A stretch of DNA of 11,116 nt from Candidatus Firestoneibacteriota bacterium. GTDB lineage: Bacteria; Oederibacteriota; D2-FULL-39-29; JBDRBU01. A model generated the notes under the pieces. That model ran no database searches and had not been told where the DNA came from. It worked only from the letters and a program-made list of their open reading frames with translations. The stretch spans positions 1-11,116 of the forward strand of contig JBDRBU010000062.1 in assembly GCA_043822305.1 (NCBI GenBank), given 5' to 3'. Each line of letters starts with the position of its first letter. Position 1 is the stretch's first letter. Shown in pieces: positions 1-11,116 of this stretch. The translations under genes were made by a program, and so were the position numbers.

Positions 1-587
1 ACAAAGTATATTTAGATGCATATTACATAGATAAATACGAGGTAACTTTTGAGCAGTATGATAAATTCTGTGAAGCAACAAAGAGAGAGAAACCTTCTGA
101 TGAGGGTTGGGGTAGAGGTAATATGCCAGTAATAAATGTAAGTTGGAATGATGCATCAGCGTATGCAAACTGGGCAGGGAAACGGCTTCCAACAGAAGCA
201 GAATGGGAAAAGGCATGCAGAGCAGGAAGTAGCAGTAAATATTGCTTTGAAGATAATAAAAGTGAACTTGGTGATTATGCATGGTATTATAGTAATTCAG
301 GTTCAAAGACACATCCAGCAGGAGAAAAGAAGCCAAACAAATGGGGAATATATGATATGCATGGTAATGTCTGGGAGTGGTGCAGTGACTGGTATGATGG
401 TGGCTATTATGCAAATAGTCATAAGGATAATCCTAAAGGACTTGATACAGGTACTTCTAAAGTTCTTCGTGGCGGCTCGTGGCACAACATTGCTAACAAT
501 TGCAGGTCCGCCCTTCGCAACTACAACTCGCCGGACCTTCGCTACGTCGATGTTGGGTTTCGTTGCGTGTTGGGTGGTGCAAAGTAG
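1..587 (+). CDS. FGE-sulfatase (SUMF1-like, CLec-fold) domain protein, 5'-truncated by the window; probable DGR target 1
   Basis: The frame is open from position 3 (KVYLDAYYIDKYEVTFEQY...), so the ATG at 123 is internal. Family motifs present: PVINVSWNDA, KRLPTEAEWEKACRAG, PNKWGIYDMHGNVWEWCSDWY, RGGSW, GFRC. It lacks the catalytic Cys pair of true FGE enzymes after RGGS. Confidence 0.93.
   Translation, partial: KVYLDAYYIDKYEVTFEQYDKFCEATKREKPSDEGWGRGNMPVINVSWNDASAYANWAGKRLPTEAEWEKACRAGSSSKYCFEDNKSELGDYAWYYSNSGSKTHPAGEKKPNKWGIYDMHGNVWEWCSDWYDGGYYANSHKDNPKGLDTGTSKVLRGGSWHNIANNCRSALRNYNSPDLRYVDVGFRCVLGGAK
459..587 (+). repeat. DGR variable region VR1 (paralogue of 4640-4768)
   Basis: Ungapped 129-nt match to 4640-4768 with 18 mismatches, 17 at codon positions 1/2, mostly in NNC/NNT codons. 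About 55% GC (70/126 over 462-587) inside an AT-rich gene. Confidence 0.85.
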
Positions 588-623
588 TTGAATATCTGAA
601 AATCTGGCAATCTGAATATCTGG
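588..623 (+). repeat. Conserved post-VR element with 4 tandem 8-mers (nnnATCTG); candidate DGR cis-acting/IMH region
   Basis: AATATCTG AAAATCTG GCAATCTG AATATCTG at 591-622; 35/36 identical to 4769-4804. Confidence 0.7.
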
Positions 624-710
624 GAAAAAGAAGTGAAAAAAATAAAGAAAGAAAATAAAGTAAGAAACACATAAAAAAGAAAGAAAAATAGAAATTTCGT
701 CAGCGTAACT

Positions 711-1116
711 TTGGTGGATATGGAATATAAAAAGTGTGAATTAATAATATTTACTAAAACGTATGATTTTATTTTATGGGCAATGGCTCATACGACAAAA
801 TTTCCAAAATCGTCAAGGTTTTCAATTTCAGCAAGAATAGAGAATAAATTATTGGATTTTATAGAAATGATACTTATAGCAAATAGGCAGAGAAATAAAC
901 TTGAAAAATTGTGTTATGCGGATGGAATTCTTGAACAAATTCGTATTTTGTTTAGATTGAGCAAAGATATGAAATTTATTAGTTTGAATTCATACGAATA
1001 TGCAGGTAAACCCTGTTAGAGACCTTCGGTCTCTTCTATTTTCTTTACCACCAACTCCGTTGGTGGCTTTCTCTAACAGGGTAAAGCAATTAATAGAGAT
1101 TGGTAAACTTTTATGA
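711..1116 (+). pseudogene. avd: DGR accessory variability determinant (bAvd-like four-helix bundle), interrupted by an insertion and C-terminally truncated
   Basis: ELIIFTKTYDFILW...TTKFPKSSRFSISARIENKLLDFIEMILIAN...LEQIRILFRLSKDMKFISLNSYEYAG resembles Avd-family proteins. The stop at 1017-1019 lies inside the insert. Removing 76 nt (1008-1083) restores ...YEYAGKQLIEIGKLL*, and the usual GGW tail is absent. Start is TTG 711 or ATG 720. Confidence 0.82.
1010..1082. mobile_element. 73-bp MITE-like palindromic element inserted in avd
   Basis: Perfect 13-bp terminal inverted repeats ACCCTGTTAGAGA (1010-1022) / TCTCTAACAGGGT (1070-1082). Internal hairpins AGAGACC-TTC-GGTCTCT (1018-1034) and CCACCAAC-TCC-GTTGGTGG (1048-1066). 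TAAA occurs at 1007-1010 and 1082-1085. The avd frame resumes right after it. Confidence 0.8.
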
Positions 1117-3353
1117 GAAACAAAAAAAATAAGATTTTATTTCTATGTTTGCTGTTGGTTAGTTTTAATTGCTGTTTTACTTCTTTTTCTTCTGCTGTTA
1201 CCATAAAAAATGTAAGTTCTCCCGGCAAAATTGATGCCGGTATATCACAAAAATACAGGGCGAAAAAGAAAGTAATAACTGCTATCAGCTATGTTATTGT
1301 CTCTGTAATTGGGTTCTATGTTCTATTTATAATATATAAGAATAAGAAAAAAAGAGCGCACCTTTTAGCCACTCTACCAGACGAAATAAGAAAAAAAATA
1401 AATTCTTCTCTTTACCAAGAAGCATACAACTTATTTGTCAAATACAGAAAACTTGATGGCAATTTAATAAAATTTTCACCGCAAGAACTTTTCAACATTT
1501 ATTACAGAAATGGTCGTATAGAAACGCTGCTTAAAATAAACCTTGGTAATAAATATTTCTGCGGATTTTGTAAACAACTGGTCAAAGAAAAGGATTGGAT
1601 AGTTGCGTATCAATTTTATAAACAATTCAAGGAGTTCGATGGTGAACCAGAAAAAGAGTTTACAATTGATGAAATACTGGATATTTATTTAAATACGGAC
1701 CAGGTGCATAAATTAAAAGAAGAAAAATTTTCTGTCGGAACTAAACTGATATTAGTAAGTAAACTTACTCTTCTTGAAAAGTCAACAGAGGCATTCTTTT
1801 TGATTAAAGATAAAGAAAGTATAATAAAAAGTCCCATTTCATCAGAGGAATTTGAACTGTTCTATGTGATATATCTGAAGTGTGATAAACTTAATGAGTT
1901 AATTGATATTGTAACCCGGAGAGATGTTAAATTACATAATCCAGATATTTATAGTTTAATGGCAAACAGGTTAATACAAAAAAAAGATTATAAGTCTGCC
2001 TTATCTATCTTAAATATAAAACAAAAACGCTACCCTGAAGAAATAAACGATGATGATTATAAACATTTGATTTATGTATCAGAAAAATCAAACCGTCTTG
2101 GAGAAATTCTACCCGATATGTTGCCGGATAAATACTGGGATAAATTTTTAATGTTACTGAAGAACAAGGGTATGGATGAAGAAATTAAAGAATTTGTTTC
2201 AAAAATACTAACCACAGACCAAAAAGAATTAATACAGTGGCTTAAAATTTGTCTAAAATATGAAATTTATGACCATGTAATGACACATATTAAAAATGAA
2301 AATTTTAAGGAATTTAATAATACTGACAATGGCAAACAATTGTTAGAGATATATTATCAGGAGGGAGCCAACTTAGAACAAATAGGCAAAATAGATATTG
2401 CTCGAGAGATATATGAGAAATTTATCAACGAACTTGGTTCTTACAAAGATGTTAATTCAAGGTATCTCCGGATAACTTCAGTTAGACCACAGAATGTTAA
2501 TGTTTCACCAGAATCTATGCGTGGAGGGACGGTTGTCGGTGGAACGCAGATGGGTGAAACATATTATATCGGCAAGAAATATGAGTTTGTCCGTGAAATA
2601 GGCAGGGGCGGCATGGGTATTGTCTATGAAGCAGTGAATAAGGAAATACATAAAACAGTAGCAATAAAGAAGATGAAAGAAGAATTAGCAATAAATGTTC
2701 GTGAAAAAAAGAGATTTATGGAAGAGGCACGGCGTGTAGCGGAGTTACATCATCCGAATATAGTTGATATATATGACATGTTTGAGGAAGCAGGTAATAT
2801 GTATCTGGTATTTGAGTATATTAATGGCGACACAGTAGATATGCTATTGAGCAAAAAAACTAGATTAAGTTTTGATGAAACAATGAAGATAGTAATGTCT
2901 GTTTGTGAGGCATTAAAATATGCACACAATAAGCAGGTGGTGCACCGGGATTTAAAGCCATCAAACATAATGGTATCAGTTGATGGTTGGGTAAAGGTAA
3001 TGGATTTTGGAATAGCTCGAGAACTAAAAGATACTCTTTCACGACTGACAGGTAAAGACACTTCTGGCACACTTGCATATATGTCGACTGAACAGCATCT
3101 CGGGGAATATGATAAAAGGTCAGATATTTATTCAGTTGGGGTAACCTTATATGAAATGCTGTCAGGAGAATTACCATTTAAAGGTCCTGATTTTCTTGCA
3201 CAAAAAGAGCGTATGGTGTTTCACCTGCTACCCGAACTTGTTCCAGAACTACCAAAACAAATTGATGGAATAATAAACAAATGTCTTCAAGCAGATAAAG
3301 AGAAAAGGTATAAAATAGTAGAAGAATTAATTGGTCAAATTAGCAAACTATGA
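1113..3353 (+). CDS. Membrane-anchored Hanks-type Ser/Thr protein kinase (signal peptide, TM helix, helical-repeat region, C-terminal kinase domain), 746 aa
   Basis: Kinase motifs GRGGMG, VAIKK, FMEEAR, HRDLKPSN, DFG, GTLAYMSTE, SDIYSVG and subdomain XI Arg (EKRY), from about nt 2580. Hydrophobic N-terminus, and TM segment VITAISYVIVSVIGFYVLFIIY followed by KNKKKR. Confidence 0.95.
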   Translation: MRNKKNKILFLCLLLVSFNCCFTSFSSAVTIKNVSSPGKIDAGISQKYRAKKKVITAISYVIVSVIGFYVLFIIYKNKKKRAHLLATLPDEIRKKINSSLYQEAYNLFVKYRKLDGNLIKFSPQELFNIYYRNGRIETLLKINLGNKYFCGFCKQLVKEKDWIVAYQFYKQFKEFDGEPEKEFTIDEILDIYLNTDQVHKLKEEKFSVGTKLILVSKLTLLEKSTEAFFLIKDKESIIKSPISSEEFELFYVIYLKCDKLNELIDIVTRRDVKLHNPDIYSLMANRLIQKKDYKSALSILNIKQKRYPEEINDDDYKHLIYVSEKSNRLGEILPDMLPDKYWDKFLMLLKNKGMDEEIKEFVSKILTTDQKELIQWLKICLKYEIYDHVMTHIKNENFKEFNNTDNGKQLLEIYYQEGANLEQIGKIDIAREIYEKFINELGSYKDVNSRYLRITSVRPQNVNVSPESMRGGTVVGGTQMGETYYIGKKYEFVREIGRGGMGIVYEAVNKEIHKTVAIKKMKEELAINVREKKRFMEEARRVAELHHPNIVDIYDMFEEAGNMYLVFEYINGDTVDMLLSKKTRLSFDETMKIVMSVCEALKYAHNKQVVHRDLKPSNIMVSVDGWVKVMDFGIARELKDTLSRLTGKDTSGTLAYMSTEQHLGEYDKRSDIYSVGVTLYEMLSGELPFKGPDFLAQKERMVFHLLPELVPELPKQIDGIINKCLQADKEKRYKIVEELIGQISKL

Positions 3354-3424
3354 CGGTGAAATTTTATAGGTCATCAATCATCTTATTTTTAATGTTTTCT
3401 ATGGTAAATAAAAAAGTGTAGGAT

Positions 3425-4768
3425 ATGAAAAATAAAATGTTTTTATTGGTATATTTAATCTGTCAACTCATAACAACTGTATATGCCCAGTCAAGAATAG
3501 AGAATGTTCATTTTGAACAGGACAACAAAGGACTTGTGCATATTTATTATGAACTTATAAACCCTTATGATGATAGATTCGAGATTACACTGAAACTCTC
3601 AGAAGAAGGTGGTAATACATTTATACTTATACCGCGAGCACTGCAAGGTGATGTTGGCGATGATGTCACGGGTAGTGGCAAAAAACACATTATCTGGGAT
3701 GTAGAGAAAGATTATCCAAAACTTAAGGGCGAAAATTTTGTTTTTTTGATAGAAGCCGAAGACAAAATGTATGAGTTCTATTACAAAAAGGGCTTGAAAT
3801 CAGCAGAGAAAGGCATGTGGGACGAAGCGATAAACTCATATCAAATAGCGTTGAAGTATAAGCCGAATGATAAGGATGCAGAAGATGGGATGAAGTCTGT
3901 TCAGATGAAAAAGCAGCAAAAGATAAGCAGTTATATTTCAAATGGAAAGAAATATACGAATGAAGGAAAATATTCAGAAGCAGTATTGGAATTTGAAAAA
4001 GCAAAGGAAATGGGAGCAGCAGGAGAAGTAGAAAAATTATTAGCGGGAGCGAAAAAGATGAATACTCCACATGAAGGCACCGGTAAGTATGCGGATATGA
4101 TATACATTTCAGCAGGAGAGTTTGAGATGGGAAGTAATGATTATGATAATGAAAAGCCTGTTCACAAGGTATATTTAGATGCATATTACATAGATAAATA
4201 CGAAGTAACCTTTGAGCAGTATGATAAATTCCGTGAAGCAACAAACAGAGAAAAACCTTCTGACAGTGGTTGGGGTAGAGGTAAAATGCCTGTAATAAAT
4301 GTTAGTTGGAATGATGCCGTAGCGTATGCAGAATGGGCAGGGAAAAGGCTTCCGACAGAAGCAGAATGGGAAAAAGCATGCAGGGCAGGAAGTAGTGGTA
4401 AATATTGCTTTGGAGATAGTGAATCAGAATTAGGTGATTATGCATGGTCATGGTATGGTAGTAATTCCGGTAGTAAGACACATGCAGTAGGGCAAAAGAA
4501 GCCGAACAAATGGGGGCTATATGATATGCATGGAAATGTATGGGAATGGTGCAGTGATTGGTATGATGATAAATATTATGAGGTAGTCGCCGGACTTGGG
4601 CAGGCGAATAATCCTAAAGGACCTAATACAGGCACTTATAAAGTTCTTCGTGGCGGCTCGTGGTACAACTATGCTCTCAATTGCAGGTCTGCCCTTCGCA
4701 TCAACTTCACGCCGGGCAGTCGCGACGACAATGTTGGGTTTCGTTGCGTGTTGAGTGGTGCAAAGTAG
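3425..4768 (+). CDS. Exported protein: signal peptide, beta-rich domain, TPR-like repeats, C-terminal FGE-sulfatase/CLec domain; probable DGR target 2, 447 aa
   Basis: Signal peptide MKNKMFLLVYLICQLITTVYA-Q. TPR-like segments YYKKG...WDEAINSYQIALKYKPND and YISNG...YSEAVLEFEKA. FGE motifs GEFEMGS, EKPVHKV, RLPTEAEWE, DMHGNVWEW, RGGSW, GFRC. Confidence 0.93.
   Translation: MKNKMFLLVYLICQLITTVYAQSRIENVHFEQDNKGLVHIYYELINPYDDRFEITLKLSEEGGNTFILIPRALQGDVGDDVTGSGKKHIIWDVEKDYPKLKGENFVFLIEAEDKMYEFYYKKGLKSAEKGMWDEAINSYQIALKYKPNDKDAEDGMKSVQMKKQQKISSYISNGKKYTNEGKYSEAVLEFEKAKEMGAAGEVEKLLAGAKKMNTPHEGTGKYADMIYISAGEFEMGSNDYDNEKPVHKVYLDAYYIDKYEVTFEQYDKFREATNREKPSDSGWGRGKMPVINVSWNDAVAYAEWAGKRLPTEAEWEKACRAGSSGKYCFGDSESELGDYAWSWYGSNSGSKTHAVGQKKPNKWGLYDMHGNVWEWCSDWYDDKYYEVVAGLGQANNPKGPNTGTYKVLRGGSWYNYALNCRSALRINFTPGSRDDNVGFRCVLSGAK
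4640..4768 (+). repeat. DGR variable region VR2 (paralogue of 459-587)
   Basis: Same scaffold as VR1. 13 amino-acid changes against one synonymous change across 43 codons. Confidence 0.85.
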
Positions 4769-4804
4769 TTGAATATCTGATAATCTGGCAATCTGAATAT
4801 CTGG
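4769..4804 (+). repeat. Second copy of the post-VR ATCTG tandem element
   Basis: TTG AATATCTG ATAATCTG GCAATCTG AATATCTG G; one mismatch to 588-623. Confidence 0.7.
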
Positions 4805-4891
4805 AAAAGTTGAAGGAAGTGAAAGAAGTGAATGAAGTGGAAAAAGTGAAGAAAAAAAGTAAAGAAAGAAAAGAAAAAAAAGAAGGTAAAG
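4805..4891 (+). repeat. Purine-rich low-complexity spacer with GAAGTGAA-like repeats
   Basis: GAAGTGAAA GAAGTGAAT GAAGTGGAA AAAGTGAAG followed by A/G runs. A similar A-rich tract follows the first target (624-692). Confidence 0.55.
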
Positions 4892-6151
4892 ATGAAAGGA
4901 AATAAAACAATCAATCTAATGTTTTTTTGTTTTCTTTTAGTATTTGCTTCATCTTTCAGTAATTTAAATTTTTGTTTTGCGCAGAATATTAAAGAAAGCA
5001 ATACAGGAGGTAATCTCCAAACCCAAAAATTTTGTGTTTTCTGTGGCAAATCAATTGAAAAGGACGCAAAAATTTGCATTCATTGTGGTGAAAAACAACC
5101 TGAAGAAGTAAGCGAGAAAAAATCATTATTATTGGAACAACCATTATTAACTAAAGAACAAGAACTGAAAAAACCTGTATCATTACCACCGGGAAAGTCT
5201 TTCCGTGAAAATGTTTCTTCGTATTATTTAATAGGGGGAATTTTAAGTTTGGTTTTAATCTTATCCGTAGTGTTTCTATTTGTTAGAAAACAAAAAAGAG
5301 TTGATACTGGCACTATAATAAGATCTCCCGAAGAAGATGGAGTAAAAAAATACGAGTTTAAAAGAGAAATTCTTCCCAGGGGCAATATGGGTGTTGTTTA
5401 TGAAGCAGTTAACAAAAAACTCAAGAAAAAAGTTGCAATTAAAAAGATGAGAGAAGAACTTAAAATTAATCTAAGGGAAAAAGAAAAGTTCCTCCAGGAA
5501 GCAAGGACAGTAGCACAATTGCATCATCCTAATATTTAATATTGTTGATATTTATGATATTCTCGAAGAAAAAGATGAAATTTATCTTGTTTTTGAATAT
5601 GTGGAGGGTAAAACAATTGATAAACTCTTGGATGAACAAAGAAAAGTAGATGTAAACAAAACAATAAAGATAATGGAGCAGATTTGTGAAGCAATGAATT
5701 ATGCTCATAACGAACATGTAGTTCATCGAGATTTAAAACCAGCAAATATCAGATTTACTCCGGATGCCAGGATTAAAATAATGGATTTTGGAATTGCACG
5801 GGTAGCGATAGATACATTAACAGCTTTAACAGGTAAAGGAGATGCTTCTGGAACATTAAGATATATGTCTACTGAACAACATTCAGGCAGTAGTGATTTT
5901 CGTTCGGATATTTACAGTTTAGGGGTGATTTTTTATGAGCTTCTCTCCGGTAAAGTACCTTTTAAAGGACCTGATTTTATTACCCAGAAGAGAGAGATGG
6001 TTTATACTCCAATAAGGGAAATTTGTCCCCAATTACAAGAGGAAGTTGAGGTAATAATCAGAAAATGTCTTCAGCCGGATAAAGATATCAAACAGTTTTA
6101 GAACTTAAAGAAGATATATTAAAATTATTTGACAAGAGGGAAGAACTGTGA
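4892..6151 (+). pseudogene. Second membrane Ser/Thr kinase (signal peptide, zinc ribbon, TM, kinase), inactivated by two frameshifts
   Basis: ORFs 4892-5539 and 5601-6101 are one gene. Removing one copy of the tandem TAATATT (5530-5543) gives HHPNIVDIYDILEEKDEIYLVFEYVEG. A second shift near 6083 hides RYQTVLELKEDILKLFDKREEL* (stop 6149-6151). HRDLKPAN, DFG and GTLRYMSTE are present. Confidence 0.88.
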
Positions 6152-6194: not shown

Positions 6195-6821
6195 ATGGAT
6201 GAAAAAAACCTAATTACATATGCCAGAGTAAATAAAAGGTATGTCTTTTCCGTGAAAGAAGCAAAAATGGTATTTAGTCAATCAAGCGGAAAGACAGTGG
6301 ATAATCTATTGCAAAAGTATGAAAAAAAAGGAATCATTGAACGTCTCAAAAAAGGTCTATATAGTGTTAAATTTCCAGAAGGCGGTCCGACGATCCCGGA
6401 CTTATTTTTAGCAAACAGAATGTATGAACCTTCTTATGTTTCCCTTGAGACAGCGCTCTCATTTTACAATATCATTCCTGAGGAAACGGCTGAAGTCACA
6501 TCGGTAACGACAGGGCAGACAAAGGTATTTAAAAACAAACAGGGAGTGTTTTGGTATTTTTCTGTAAAAAAGGAAGCATTCTTTGGATACATACTTTTGA
6601 ATCTTGAAGGTTTTAAAGTAAATATTGCAGAGAAGGAGAAAGCACTTGTGGATTATATTTATCTTAAAATGAGGCGAGGAGAGGAAATTGATGTTATGGA
6701 AGACAGGTTTGATACCGATATCTTAAAGCAACTTAATTGGGAAAAAGTAAAACAATATGCCAAACTTTACGGAGTGTTCGTTGTATCTCGCGTTGAAAAG
6801 CTAAAAAAGGAGAATTTATGA
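6195..6821 (+). CDS. abiEi: Type IV toxin-antitoxin antitoxin, AbiEi family (N-terminal wHTH), 208 aa
   Basis: wHTH-like GIIERLKKGLY, then PSYVSLETALSFYNIIPE, VTSVT and AEKEKALVDYIY. ATGA overlap with the downstream nucleotidyltransferase gene. Confidence 0.85.
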   Translation: MDEKNLITYARVNKRYVFSVKEAKMVFSQSSGKTVDNLLQKYEKKGIIERLKKGLYSVKFPEGGPTIPDLFLANRMYEPSYVSLETALSFYNIIPEETAEVTSVTTGQTKVFKNKQGVFWYFSVKKEAFFGYILLNLEGFKVNIAEKEKALVDYIYLKMRRGEEIDVMEDRFDTDILKQLNWEKVKQYAKLYGVFVVSRVEKLKKENL

Positions 6822-7630
6822 TCACAATGGAATCGTTGCTGGATGAAGCTGAAAAGATGAAACTGCCATTAAATAAAAAACGCGCAATACTAAGAGAATA
6901 TATTCAGTCATTAACTTTAAATTATATATTTAAAAGCGAATACGGTAAAAAATTATTTTTTGCCGGAGGAACGGCGCTGAGATTTGTTTATAACATCCCG
7001 AGGTTTTCTCAAGATTTGGATTTCAACGCAAAAGGGCTTGGTTATGGCGAGTTTAGCGGGATGATTGTCCTGCTTAAAGATAAATTGGATAATGAAGGTT
7101 TTAATGTTGAATACACAAGAAAGGATATTTATGATGTGTTATCGGCAAAGATTACTTTTAAAGAAGTAATGAAGCAATTTGGTTTAACGGACAAGATCGG
7201 GTTGGACATAATGATTAAGATAGAGACAAATGTACCAAAGTGGAAGATCAAGCATGAGGTTGTTGCTGTCTCAAAATTCGGACAGTTGTTTACCGCTCAA
7301 ATCATGGATAAAGGATCGTTCCTGGCGGAAAAATCGCATGCTTTTATCCATAGATGCAGGGGTCGAGATGTTTACGATATTATTTTTTTACTAAAGAATA
7401 AATTTCCGTTAGATCCTGAAATGTTTAAAAACAAGGAAATTCAGGGAGAGCCGAAAGAAGCCCTTCTAAAAAAGTTTAAAGGATTGAAAAAAGCAAATAT
7501 GAAGTCTTTGGTTAATCAGGTGATGCCGTTTTTATTTAAGGAAGAAGAAATTGAATATGTTAAGAAAGCAGTTTTTTATGGTCCGGAATTGCTGAAACAA
7601 TATGATACATCGACACAAAAAAATGGGTAA
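6818..7630 (+). CDS. abiEii: Nucleotidyltransferase toxin, AbiEii/AbiGii family, 270 aa
   Basis: Family motifs LREYIQ, FAGGTALR...RFSQDLDF, IKIE, LAEK...R.RGRDVYD. Translationally coupled to abiEi. Confidence 0.88.
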   Translation: MITMESLLDEAEKMKLPLNKKRAILREYIQSLTLNYIFKSEYGKKLFFAGGTALRFVYNIPRFSQDLDFNAKGLGYGEFSGMIVLLKDKLDNEGFNVEYTRKDIYDVLSAKITFKEVMKQFGLTDKIGLDIMIKIETNVPKWKIKHEVVAVSKFGQLFTAQIMDKGSFLAEKSHAFIHRCRGRDVYDIIFLLKNKFPLDPEMFKNKEIQGEPKEALLKKFKGLKKANMKSLVNQVMPFLFKEEEIEYVKKAVFYGPELLKQYDTSTQKNG

Positions 7631-7646
7631 AAATAGGAGGTGCAGG

Positions 7647-9140
7647 ATGAAGAAAATTAAAGTATTTTTTTGTTTCATATTTCTATTAGCATTAACAAAT
7701 ATAAGTTGTAGTCCTTTTCAACTAATTGGAGGATTATTCCCTGATGAAAAAGAAGTGCAAAAGAAAGAAGAAAAAGAAAGACGGGAAAGGTTAGCATGGG
7801 AAAAAGCGGATAAGGAAGTAAATGAAAAATTAAAGGATCCGAATTATTATTGTGAGAAAGCACTTGCTGAATATGCTGAATTTGATGGTAATTCGTGGAA
7901 AACGATAGAGGAAGCAAAGAAAAGAGCAAGATTAGAATTGGCAAAAAGGCTTAAAGTAAGAGTAATAAATACTGTTAGTGATACTATTAAAAAAGATAAC
8001 AAATTAGTTGAGGAAAAATTTGAAAGCAAGACAACCACCTATGTTGATGCTTTATTAGAGAATGTTAAAGTTGAAGAATTTGAAAAATATCGTGAAAAAG
8101 ACCAGGTCACGGCTATTGCTTACCTTCCTGTAAGGATATATAAAGATAAGGTAGAAGCAGATCTTAAATCCAAGAAAATATCTATTAGTACGCCGTTTGA
8201 ACAAGGTTTGGAAGCAATGAAACAAAAAAATTATGGGCAGGCACTTACTCAATTTATTAATAGTCGTGCGAAATTGGTAGATAGTTTTAGTGGTTTGCTA
8301 AATGAAGATATAGATGAGGACGGAAAAACAGAAGATGTAGGAGGTATACTATCGGCAAGGATAAGTGAGATTGTAAATAATTTAGAGTTGAAAAGCCTTG
8401 ATGATAAAATATTTTTTGATAGTGATGGAAAAATAACAAAAAAACCAACTGTATTTGTGTCTTATAGGGTAGATAGTAATAATAGACAACCTGTTTCCGG
8501 TATCCCTTTAAAAGTAGCATTTATTAAGGGAGAAGGAAAAATTTCAGAGGTACCTTTAAAAACAAGTGGACAAGGGGATTTGGAAATACCCATTGAAAAC
8601 ATTAATGTGGATTCTTCAACCAAGGAAGTAACGGTTAATGTTGAGATAGACGGAGAAAAAATAGGTTTAGAAAAAACATTCTATTTACCTATTTGCAGGA
8701 TAGAGATGTATAAAAAGAAGGCAGTAGCGTACTGTGTTAATTTCTTTAGTGATGGGTTAAAAACACATCCAGCATCCTGGGTTGATGAAATAAAAGGAAT
8801 GATAATAGATTATGGATTTGGAGTTGAAGAATACGATATAAAAGAGAAAGATATTAGCACAACTACAATAAATGATATAACCAAAACAAATGTTGATTAT
8901 TTCATTTATGTTATGATGACTTCTGAAAGCAAGAAAGACCCTTATGATATGTATAATGCCATGCTTACAAGTAAGGCATCAATATATTCTTTTCCAGAAG
9001 AGAAAATATATAAGACCATTGAAGGTATTTCAGCAAGCGGGTATAGCACAACAGGGTTAAATGCCGGATACGATGCCTTAGGTAAAGTAAAAAACACTTT
9101 AATGGATAAAATAAAAGCAGTAATCAAGGATTTAAAGTAG
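7647..9140 (+). CDS. Predicted lipoprotein with LPP20-like N-terminal domain, about 497 aa
   Basis: The likely start is ATG 7647, which has AGGAGG at 7635-7640, rather than 7602. Lipoprotein-type signal MKKIKVFFCFIFLLALTNIS-C. EEAKKRARLELAKRLKVRV resembles LPP20-type domains. The domain call is tentative. Confidence 0.65.
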   Translation: MKKIKVFFCFIFLLALTNISCSPFQLIGGLFPDEKEVQKKEEKERRERLAWEKADKEVNEKLKDPNYYCEKALAEYAEFDGNSWKTIEEAKKRARLELAKRLKVRVINTVSDTIKKDNKLVEEKFESKTTTYVDALLENVKVEEFEKYREKDQVTAIAYLPVRIYKDKVEADLKSKKISISTPFEQGLEAMKQKNYGQALTQFINSRAKLVDSFSGLLNEDIDEDGKTEDVGGILSARISEIVNNLELKSLDDKIFFDSDGKITKKPTVFVSYRVDSNNRQPVSGIPLKVAFIKGEGKISEVPLKTSGQGDLEIPIENINVDSSTKEVTVNVEIDGEKIGLEKTFYLPICRIEMYKKKAVAYCVNFFSDGLKTHPASWVDEIKGMIIDYGFGVEEYDIKEKDISTTTINDITKTNVDYFIYVMMTSESKKDPYDMYNAMLTSKASIYSFPEEKIYKTIEGISASGYSTTGLNAGYDALGKVKNTLMDKIKAVIKDLK

Positions 9141-9214: not shown

Positions 9215-11116
9215 ATGAATAGAATTGTAAAATATCTACTATTGGTTATTATGGTTTTGTGCGTAGGGGTGCTTATTTATATCTATAGATTTATAAATTA
9301 TCCCTTTGAGATAAAACCTTATGAAGAATCAATTAAATTACTTGTTACAGATGTTATTTATAAATGCGAAAAAAAAGGATGGAAAGGAACTATTTCCGAA
9401 ATTAAATCTATTAAAGGTCCTGTCACTGATGATTATCTTGATAGTGTATTAGTTCCTGAAATTACTGTTAAAATTCTTGAAAGCGAGAAAAAAGTACTGA
9501 CTTTTATTATACCTCCCGATGAATACCAGCAGCGTATAAAAGAGTTAAAAAAGCTGTTAACTGATAAGGGTGTGCCTGAAAACGAGGTAATAAAAACTAT
9601 AATGGAAAGAACAAAAAATGCAAAATACAAAGCCGATTATGATATCGAAATAAGTTGGAGTTTATTTAATAAAGAGAAACAGCACATTCAAATAATATTT
9701 AAGGTAAGCAAAGAGGAACCGATAGAATCACACGAAATTTTTACGTATCCTATATTTGAACAAAAGTATAATAAAAAAATGTGTGATTATAAGTTGACTC
9801 ACAAAATAACACTTGGTGTATTTTGTTTGGCATTTTTGGCTTTTATTAGTAGTTGGATAATTATGTTTATCAAAGGAAAACTTGTTGATATGGGAATTAC
9901 AAAAGATAAACTTGAAGATTATTTAAGAGGGGGACATTTTTTAGCTGCTGAATCTTTGGTTAATCAAACATTAAACGCTTTACCAAACAATACTGATTTA
10001 CTGGCGTTTAAGGAAAGATTAATGATAGTAACGAAAAGTAATCCCAGAAGGGCGGATGAAGCGTATATCAGGTATATTAATATAATGATGAAATTAAAAC
10101 AACAAGTTCGTTTGACAAAAAAAGAATTTGAGAACTTTAAAAAATTACCACAGTACCTTGAATTACCGGAAATTACCGAAGCAGTAGCAAAATACGAAAA
10201 GCATATAAGATTACATGATCTGATTAATCAGTTAGAAGGTGATACTAAAAATATAAAAAAGTTAATAGAAAGCGGAGATTTAAGTAAAGCTAAAACTGAA
10301 AGTCAATCGTTATTAAAGAGTAGTGAGATGACTGAATATGAAAGGACAGCAAAAGTTTTTGTAGCGAGCAATCAAGATAATGTTTTATTATTACCTTCGG
10401 GAGAGACAGGATTGGCATCCGGTGAAGGACTTGCAGATTACAGAGAAAAGGTCGGCAATTTTAGTGAAGAAATAGCAAAAAGGGGAAAAGAAAGTAAAGA
10501 AATGTTTGAAGAGGCGAAAAACTTTTTCAAAAACCTTGATATTGAAAGCATGGAAAATGTTTTGCAAAAAGTAGTAAAAATTAATAAGGATTTTAAAGAG
10601 GCAGAAGACATTCTTGATAGTATAAGAAAATCAAAAAACACAGACAAACTTTGTTTAGTTTCAAAACAAACAAGTAAAAAGGTGTATATGTTAAAAAATG
10701 ATATAATCACTTTTGGATGCAAAAAAGATGATTATATGCCGGATGTGAATATAAATAACCCAAGAATTAGCCGAAAACATTTAAAACTTTGCATTATAGA
10801 AAATAATGTGATTGCTGAAGATGACAGTTCAGCTAATGGTACATATTATGGATCTGATAAAATAACAAAAATGCAATTAGAAGACGGAGATATACTGGAT
10901 TTAGCTCATTCATATAAAATAGTTATTCATATTTTACGAGGCAGCGAGAATGTTTCATCAACCATGGTTGATGAAACTATGACTGAACAAGTATACTTAA
11001 ACAGACAATCGGGTTTAAAAGGTACAAAAGTAGGAGGCTTGTTTATTGAATGTGATGATAGATATGTAATTGTGATCTTAGATATTGTGCCTATGGCATT
11101 TACAAAAGTAGGAATA
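9215..11116 (+). CDS. Two-TM membrane protein with cytoplasmic helical region and FHA domain; 3'-truncated by the window (at least 634 aa; absent from the ORF track)
   Basis: GGAGG at 9200-9204, ATG 9215, and no stop in manual translation to the window end. TM1 IVKYLLLVIMVLCVGVLIYIY; TM2 ITLGVFCLAFLAFISSWIIMFI. FHA-like IITFGC...PDVNINNPRISRKH...EDDSSANGTY...LEDGDILDL at about 10703-10903. Confidence 0.85.
   Translation, partial: MNRIVKYLLLVIMVLCVGVLIYIYRFINYPFEIKPYEESIKLLVTDVIYKCEKKGWKGTISEIKSIKGPVTDDYLDSVLVPEITVKILESEKKVLTFIIPPDEYQQRIKELKKLLTDKGVPENEVIKTIMERTKNAKYKADYDIEISWSLFNKEKQHIQIIFKVSKEEPIESHEIFTYPIFEQKYNKKMCDYKLTHKITLGVFCLAFLAFISSWIIMFIKGKLVDMGITKDKLEDYLRGGHFLAAESLVNQTLNALPNNTDLLAFKERLMIVTKSNPRRADEAYIRYINIMMKLKQQVRLTKKEFENFKKLPQYLELPEITEAVAKYEKHIRLHDLINQLEGDTKNIKKLIESGDLSKAKTESQSLLKSSEMTEYERTAKVFVASNQDNVLLLPSGETGLASGEGLADYREKVGNFSEEIAKRGKESKEMFEEAKNFFKNLDIESMENVLQKVVKINKDFKEAEDILDSIRKSKNTDKLCLVSKQTSKKVYMLKNDIITFGCKKDDYMPDVNINNPRISRKHLKLCIIENNVIAEDDSSANGTYYGSDKITKMQLEDGDILDLAHSYKIVIHILRGSENVSSTMVDETMTEQVYLNRQSGLKGTKVGGLFIECDDRYVIVILDIVPMAFTKVGI

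Follow-up and report, generated by a model that had tools for sequence, protein, structure and literature searches.

Two gene ends of a Candidatus Firestoneibacteriota bacterium as recipient sites of a multi-target diversity-generating retroelement

How can two diverging genes come to share a terminal patch that is identical except at scattered first and second codon positions? This question is raised by an 11,116-nt stretch of DNA from a Candidatus Firestoneibacteriota bacterium (contig JBDRBU010000062.1 of assembly GCA_043822305.1; the whole stretch is hereafter called the window), in which two open reading frames (ORFs) encode proteins that end in domains of the C-type lectin (CLec) fold. 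A preliminary description of the window had aligned positions 459-587 with 4640-4768 without gaps, and had proposed that both genes were diversified from one shared template in the manner of the variable regions (VRs) of a diversity-generating retroelement (DGR). Recomputation returned the same alignment (129 nt each, the final 43 codons of each ORF) and the same tally of 18 mismatches, of which 17 are at codon positions 1 or 2 and 14 have an A in one copy. These fall in 14 codons, the same as those listed there, and change 13 of the 43 residues. Third-position changes had been described as common upstream, and indeed the 66 mismatches over 456-474 nt (approximately 460 aligned bases) of the same domains are split 20/15/31 over codon positions 1, 2 and 3. 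Ordinary third-position drift thus prevails upstream of the VR and ceases at the VR. Identity between the two copies runs for 36 nt beyond both stop codons and then ends abruptly. We put the probability at about 0.95 that a single chromosomal multi-target DGR has three recipient sites, two of which are in the window, and that its core lies just upstream.

The window is contig C62 of a draft genome of 2.15 Mb in 125 contigs (96.8% complete, 2% contamination). Searching this genome with window positions 430-640 as the query gave four matches: two in the window (VR_A and VR_B), and two on contig C65, a contig of 6,927 bp, namely a third variable region (VR_C, 4046-4166) and a template repeat (TR, 4634-4751). 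C65 ends with exactly the 89 nt with which the window begins, a sequence that is unique in the genome; therefore, all parts of the DGR belong to one locus. Joined across this overlap, target A has 493 codons without an internal stop. The first ORF of the window is accordingly the 3′ part of the gene that follows the reverse transcriptase (RT) gene, which, like the third VR and a broken copy of the accessory gene avd within the window (avd'), had not been recognised before. The order of the locus is target C, avd, TR, RT, target A, avd' (broken), kinase 1, target B and kinase 2 (broken). The three VRs and the TR are on the same strand, with VR_A approximately 2.5 kb and VR_B approximately 6.7 kb downstream of the TR, and the DGR core (avd, TR and RT) lies on the abutting contig, 2.1-2.5 kb upstream of the window start. 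The parts are as follows (FGE, formylglycine-generating enzyme; TM, transmembrane).

C65 2935-4173: target C, 412 aa, with a zinc ribbon, one hydrophobic helix and an FGE-sulfatase domain (PF03781, E 4e-71)
C65 4046-4166: VR_C, at the 3′ end of the target C gene
C65 4236-4592: avd, intact (NF033474, PF22296)
C65 4634-4751: TR, 118 nt, intergenic, between avd and RT
C65 4752-4930: spacer, 179 nt, between TR and RT
C65 4931-5947: RT, 338 aa, intact (RVT_1, E 1.5e-26)
C65 5944 to contig end: start of target A, a zinc ribbon/TM/TPR/FGE protein whose start overlaps the RT stop
Window 3-587, + strand: 3′ part of target A, FGE-sulfatase/CLec domain (PF03781, E 8e-55), open at the window start
Window 463-580, + strand: VR_A, 118-nt match to the TR
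Window 3425-4768, + strand: target B, 447 aa (PF03781, E 8e-64, with TPR matches)
Window 4644-4761, + strand: VR_B, 118-nt match to the TR

The preliminary description had proposed looking in this genome for a non-coding, template-like copy beside an RT gene. Such a copy is present: the TR comes after the stop codon of avd (4592) and before the start of the RT gene (4931), with no + strand ORF of at least 70 aa covering it. The template that had been inferred from the two window copies agrees with the real TR at all specified bases, and the TR resolves the ambiguous positions (Y=T, NN=AA, R=A, R=G). The stretches that match the TR (463-580 and 4644-4761) are slightly narrower than those first aligned. 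Mismatches between the TR and its copies are concentrated at TR adenines, as would be expected of a shared template. There are 32 adenines among the 118 TR columns, and these carry 50 of the 52 TR/VR mismatches in total. VR_A differs from the TR at 16 positions, 15 of them adenines (Fisher p 2e-9), VR_B at 15 positions, all of them adenines (Fisher p 2e-10), and VR_C at 21 positions, 20 of them adenines (Fisher p 2e-13). The adenines are replaced by T, G and C. The sole non-adenine difference in VR_A is a synonymous T>C (TCT>TCC) at window 509, whilst that in VR_C is a G>T which turns the conserved W of the motif RGGSW into L. VR_C also contains one extra codon, within a run of AAC AAC AAC in the TR, where it reads TAC TAC TAC TCC. 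This extra codon looks like a fourth, mutated AAC resulting from slippage on the repeat, and an indel opposite AAC is figured as a known DGR variant by Wu et al. (2018, PMC5758913).

We then compared the three paralogues over approximately 460 nt upstream of the VRs and over the 86 non-adenine and 32 adenine columns of the VRs. The upstream DNA has diverged by 14.3% (A/B), 27.2% (A/C) and 22.9% (B/C), whereas the 86 non-adenine VR columns contain only 1 (A/B), 2 (A/C) and 1 (B/C) differences (Fisher p 7e-5 to 7e-9). The 32 adenine columns contain 17 (A/B), 17 (A/C) and 22 (B/C). With differences at 17 of 32 adenine columns and at 1 of 86 others, the distribution of mismatches between the two window copies is therefore not a matter of chance. 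Moreover, since the non-adenine VR columns are nearly identical and the DNA upstream of them has diverged, the TR overwrote the three VRs after the genes had diverged. Repeated rewriting of three sites from a shared template explains this pattern; drift or selection acting on paralogues does not. Rewriting by a DGR thus accounts for a patch common to diverging genes in which the differences are scattered over codon positions 1 and 2.

The reading frame of the targets, when laid over the TR, places its adenines in 13 AAY codons together with AGG, ACG and GAC. This gives a coding capacity of 9.3e16 possible peptides per target, and no possible change yields a stop codon. Past the last variable adenine (C65 4720) follows a stretch that is identical in TR and VRs, the core of which is a 21-nt A-free run (GTTGGGTTTCGTTGCGTGTT plus one base). 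Next come three A/G differences, and homology ends at C65 4751. These three TR adenines (C65 4743, 4744 and 4748) correspond to window 572, 573 and 577 in VR_A and to 4753, 4754 and 4758 in VR_B, and are G in all VRs except for one position in VR_B. As judged from the sequence, this anatomy of the 3′ end fits an initiation of mutagenic homing site and its template counterpart (IMH and IMH*), though it has no pure GC block.

The RT itself points in the same direction. Its best relative of solved structure is 8ub7_A, a 328-aa entry named 'Reverse transcriptase' that we take to be bRT of Bordetella phage BPP-1 (E 2.6e-63, query positions 2-321 of 338); the best group II intron RT reaches 4e-20. 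The alignment contains the motifs LGNLTSQ and YVDD, and a motif of the form [I/L/V]GxxxSQ marks DGR RTs. NCBIfam holds no model for DGR RTs, and all of its RT models score below cut-off for this protein. Matches at E <=1e-20 were found in 84 phage records, including Bordetella phages, Vibrio phage VP585 and ANMV-1. The nearest RT in public genomes (63% identity) is in a Candidatus Omnitrophota metagenome-assembled genome (MAG), where a caspase/FGE target, avd, TR and RT follow one another as they do here and the TR is similarly designed. Among the 13 loci of the nearest RT relatives, 11 contain adenine-biased TR/VR pairs in the DNA examined. The RT was not found in the 40 kin genomes searched, in which the best matches are 26-42% identical, lie mostly inside far longer ORFs and resemble RTs of other types. 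Ribosomal protein L2, on the other hand, is nearest (68%) to that of a Candidatus Firestonebacteria MAG. With the nearest match of the RT in another phylum, that of L2 in a Firestonebacteria MAG and no such RT found in those kin genomes, the comparison hints that the DGR may have been acquired horizontally.

The intact avd matches NF033474 (DivGenRetAVD) with 108.1 bits (cut-off 80) and PF22296 with E 7e-21. The 179-nt spacer between the TR and the RT gene folds as RNA at -42.1 kcal/mol (z -4.35), with 0 of 200 shuffles as good. Five related DGRs have a three-hairpin consensus in common with it, and compensatory change is seen in 22 of 32 pairs over the six sequences. No Rfam family reached its gathering score in the window or in C65. 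In BPP-1 a structured spacer recruits bRT-Avd (PMC12875486), and by analogy the spacer on C65 fits a spacer of this kind. By homology with BPP-1, an avd-TR-spacer RNA would be reverse-transcribed by an RT-Avd complex, the template adenines would be copied unfaithfully in the process, and the cDNA would take the place of the homologous sequence with which each target gene ends.

As the preliminary description had it, the target genes are of the CLec fold, specifically of the FGE-sulfatase/CLec type. The PF03781 match extends to position 254 of the 255 in the profile. Among proteins of solved structure, the one nearest to target B in sequence is TvpA of Treponema denticola (PDB 2y3c, E 5e-39). 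The VRs therefore appear to lie at the C-terminus of FGE-sulfatase-type CLec domains, framed by RGGSW and GFRC, which are invariant or nearly so in 13 aligned targets. All of the NCBIfam equivalogs considered (EgtB, SenA, GldK and PvdO) score far below their cut-offs for the targets, and TvpA is described as lacking FGE activity (PMC5758913). An AlphaFold2 model of the CLec domain of target B, for which an alignment of 13 rows was used, was discarded because of its low quality (mean pLDDT 48, pTM 0.46), so the fold is assigned by sequence. In targets C and A, an N-terminal zinc ribbon is combined with a single strongly hydrophobic segment, ahead of which is a lysine-rich stretch. The N-terminus of target B is hydrophobic and resembles a signal peptide; a TPR and the C-terminal FGE-sulfatase/CLec domain complete the protein. 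Given the TM helix of C and A and the signal-peptide-like N-terminus of B, the CLec domains probably face outward, and the varied surface would be a ligand-binding face displayed outside the cytoplasm.

The identity that continues beyond the VRs belongs to a 43-nt tract which is found after all three VRs and is absent from the TR.

C65 4167-4209: conserved tract after VR_C
Window 581-623, + strand: conserved tract after VR_A, 43 nt, containing the last two codons and the stop codon (585-587)
Window 4762-4804, + strand: conserved tract after VR_B, the same element as window 581-623

There are 1-2 mismatches among the three sites over the 43 nt, after which similarity is gone. The tract contains ATCTG four times at a spacing of 8 nt; as a chain of one 4-mer this counts 4 units, with p 0.002-0.004 when compared with dinucleotide shuffles. 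No hairpin was found in this place after any of the three VRs (DNA folds of 81 nt around the VR ends, -1.9 to -3.3 kcal/mol, z -0.17 to 0.15). Window 540-760 contains no terminator-like site and no sigma-70-like promoter, and C65 4120-4960 contains a single promoter match, on the minus strand.

Similar tracts were sought at other loci, with the longest chain of one 4-mer at 6-10-nt spacing within 50 nt after the VR as the statistic, which was devised after the pattern had been seen. The set comprised 33 VR-downstream windows from 28 loci of several phyla; the loci are related to one another and two of the windows (L038 and L040) are identical. It includes 16 of 31 more distant loci scanned, these being the ones with a detectable TR/VR pair. 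Chains of at least 3 units followed 23 of the 33 VRs, made up of 15 of 17 at the own locus and the 11 nearest loci and 8 of 16 at the more distant loci. Such chains were found downstream of 1 of 28 TRs, in 144 of 3,121 unselected 50-nt windows and after 49 of 441 stops of ORFs of at least 150 aa, VR-bearing ORFs included. Moreover, when each VR-downstream window was set against dinucleotide shuffles of itself, 19 of the 33 scored better than 95% of the shuffles (p<=0.05). The cores repeat every 7-9 nt (TCTG, CTTTTAC or ATTTGAC), without exception on the sense strand. The periodic tract of several relatives is followed by a GC hairpin. Remote VRs with no avd behind them keep the tract too, and this speaks against its being a simple avd promoter. 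We tentatively predict, with the odds against it, that this tract is a cis element of the recipient site that marks the DGR target, alongside the GC hairpin or in its place. The DGR literature reached by our full-text searches did not yield a description of such a periodic tract, which is not proof that it is undescribed, and the finding and entry of the VR by cDNA are still described as incompletely understood (PMC12875486). The tract matters only if it is functional.

Between and behind the two window targets are the broken avd copy and two kinase genes.

Window 720-1019, + strand: avd', 99 aa from the ATG at 720 (ORF calling begins at a TTG at 711; PF22296, E 3e-14)
Window 1011-1081, + strand: insertion in avd', approximately 71 nt, with 12-nt terminal inverted repeats
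Window 1113-3353, + strand: Ser/Thr protein kinase 1, 746 aa (PF00069, E 2e-59)
Window 4892-6101, + strand: Ser/Thr protein kinase 2, with the N- and C-terminal halves of the Pkinase domain in two ORFs (4892-5539 and 5601-6101)

The product of avd' is 88% identical to that of the intact avd over 99 aa and has lost its C-terminal ~20 residues to the insertion; against NF033474, of which it covers positions 1-90 of 104, it scores 80.0 bits and so just equals the cut-off (80). The insertion is bounded by perfect 12-nt terminal inverted repeats (CCCTGTTAGAGA / TCTCTAACAGGG), has GTAAA on both flanks and contains two inner hairpins, one with a TTCG loop (RNA fold -31.6 kcal/mol). It was considered as a multi-copy miniature inverted-repeat transposable element, but blastn found no second full copy in the genome. 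Two sites, C78:184 and C117:5377, share GTAAA and an 11/12 match to one of its terminal repeats. Homology to avd resumes at 1082 and ends at approximately 1112, at the start codon of kinase 1, with no TR or RT after it. Kinase 1 thus occupies the place where TR and RT would come after avd', and avd' has the appearance of a leftover from the duplication of a target-avd(-TR-RT) module. Kinase 1 has hydrophobic segments at residues 7-27 and 53-76, a long helical region and a C-terminal kinase domain. Kinase 2 is split by a 7-nt tandem duplication (TAATATT twice, window 5530-5543), which is either a real frameshift or an assembly error.

The targets are therefore interleaved with membrane Ser/Thr kinases, and proteins with WD40, TPR and FHA domains are encoded nearby. 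Upstream of target C (C65 493-2932) are genes for two small putative lipoproteins, with one weak LPP20 match below cut-off, and for a 402-aa WD40 beta-propeller protein, whose stop codon shares bases with the start codon of target C. Immediately behind the DGR/kinase block, at window 6195-7630, are a gene for an AbiEi-like antitoxin (NF047376, 64 bits, cut-off 150) and, with a 4-nt overlap, a gene for an AbiEii nucleotidyltransferase toxin (PF08843, E 1e-17); by these matches they would form a type IV toxin-antitoxin pair. The 512-aa protein encoded at window 7602-9140 has a hydrophobic N-terminus and matches no Pfam or NCBIfam family. The last protein of the window (9215-11116) is 634 aa or more in length, has two hydrophobic segments and carries an FHA domain at its C-terminus (E 6e-9); it is a possible candidate for a phosphothreonine reader serving the neighbouring kinases. 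The 18 kb that we examined showed neither vWA nor MoxR, STAND NTPase or effector-associated domains.

Could the two gene ends have arisen without a retroelement, as paralogues homogenised by gene conversion and exposed to positive selection that favours changes at codon positions 1 and 2? Tandem paralogous FGE domains could convert, and the codon-position bias, if taken by itself, is also compatible with diversifying selection. However, such a process leaves unexplained why all but two of the 52 differences sit on adenines of a third, non-coding copy, and why that copy is placed between avd and a DGR-type RT; moreover, the 13 AAY codons of the TR are a known DGR design. We consider this origin highly improbable. 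The reading of these sites as recipients of one multi-target DGR does have several points to weigh against it. The join between C65 and the window depends on the 89-nt overlap, in a draft of 125 contigs. The three differences at C65 4743, 4744 and 4748 may be fixed IMH/IMH* differences rather than products of mutagenesis, in which case the 3′ boundary of cDNA transfer would fall in the preceding identical stretch; leaving them out, 42 of 44 mismatches are at adenines. A GC-rich inverted repeat, which is needed after the VR for efficient homing in BPP-1 (PMC3240598) and is present in 127 of 372 DGRs (34%; PMC5758913), was found after none of the three VRs. Furthermore, there is decay near the DGR, in the form of the broken avd copy and the frameshifted kinase, and the two non-adenine differences and the 3-nt insertion in the VRs could be decay after the last homing.

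Some of these same features favour a DGR that is now a fossil, its VRs having been written by past retrohoming and evolving today as ordinary paralogues. These are the two non-adenine substitutions and the 3-nt indel, the loss of the conserved W of RGGSW in VR_C, the decayed neighbourhood (avd' interrupted and truncated, kinase 2 frameshifted) and the missing hairpin. A look-up of sequencing runs for window 3900-5000 listed none. In contrast, the RT, avd, TR and three target ORFs are all intact, the RNA structure of the spacer is conserved and the 43-nt tract after each VR has been kept. The non-adenine VR columns are 98-99% identical to the TR whereas the flanks differ by 14-27%, and thus the last homing events were recent relative to the divergence of the paralogues. 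A fossil is an appreciable possibility but an improbable one to our minds, and the sequence makes present-day diversifying activity likely. A partial loss of function is also conceivable, in which only the targets flanking the core (C and A) are live, VR_B having arisen by duplication and having ceased to be a recipient. Of the three sites VR_B is the farthest from the TR (6.7 kb downstream, with a kinase gene in front of it), and the target-kinase unit looks block-duplicated. However, VR_B is the cleanest of the three VRs, with every one of its mismatches at adenines and no non-adenine change, and it has kept both the A-free 21-nt junction and the 43-nt downstream tract. Moreover, non-adjacent targets, at distances from kb to Mb, occur in 45 of 372 DGRs (PMC5758913). 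A dead VR_B is therefore unlikely, and we retain the reading of a DGR with three recipient sites.

Among the closest known counterparts is the TvpA DGR of T. denticola, which is likewise chromosomal, has several paralogous targets and carries its VR at the C-terminus of an FGE-sulfatase-type CLec domain. The theoretical diversity is of similar order (9e16 here, 1e20 for TvpA; PMC5758913). It differs in having seven remote targets, whereas here three targets lie within approximately 9 kb on one strand, two of them with an N-terminal zinc ribbon and a TM helix, interleaved with Ser/Thr kinase genes and in another host lineage. The DGR of BPP-1 (mtd-avd-TR-brt) has the same gene order of target, avd, TR and RT, the same Avd family, adenine-specific mismatches, a structured spacer between TR and RT, and, if 8ub7_A is indeed its bRT, an RT that aligns over its full length. 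However, it is phage-borne and has Mtd as its target, whereas the present element is cellular and has three targets of the FGE-type CLec. It also differs in that here the GC-rich hairpin after the VR is absent and a periodic direct-repeat tract is in its place.

In the classification of Wu et al. (2018, PMC5758913), the targets resemble category b CLec1 proteins, with a C-terminal VR (RGGSW ... GFRC) in an FGE-sulfatase domain; this class is the largest target category, with 71 of 372 DGRs. The category also takes in multi-target cassettes and, as type b12, targets fused to a kinase, whereas the kinase here is a separate neighbouring gene. Loci of putative sensors diversified by DGRs, described by Kaur et al. 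(2020, PMC7159879) and Dore et al. (2024, PMC10907252), are similar in that hypervariable FGE/CLec domains stand beside signalling genes of the kinase, WD40, TPR and FHA type. In contrast to those loci, vWA, MoxR, STAND NTPase and effector-associated domains were not found within the 18 kb here, and unlike those hosts the bacterium has a small genome (2.1 Mb) and gives no evidence of multicellularity.

Among DGRs the element is an ordinary one, multi-target and of the TvpA type, and its biology is not new. It adds one multi-target FGE/CLec-type element to the tens of thousands of DGRs already catalogued. The locus also illustrates that the VRs of a DGR can be recognised, and their template recovered almost base for base, from two paralogous copies alone. 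For the organism itself, an uncultured bacterium with a small genome, the targets, perhaps together with the interleaved membrane kinases, would constitute a variable module for sensing or adhesion.

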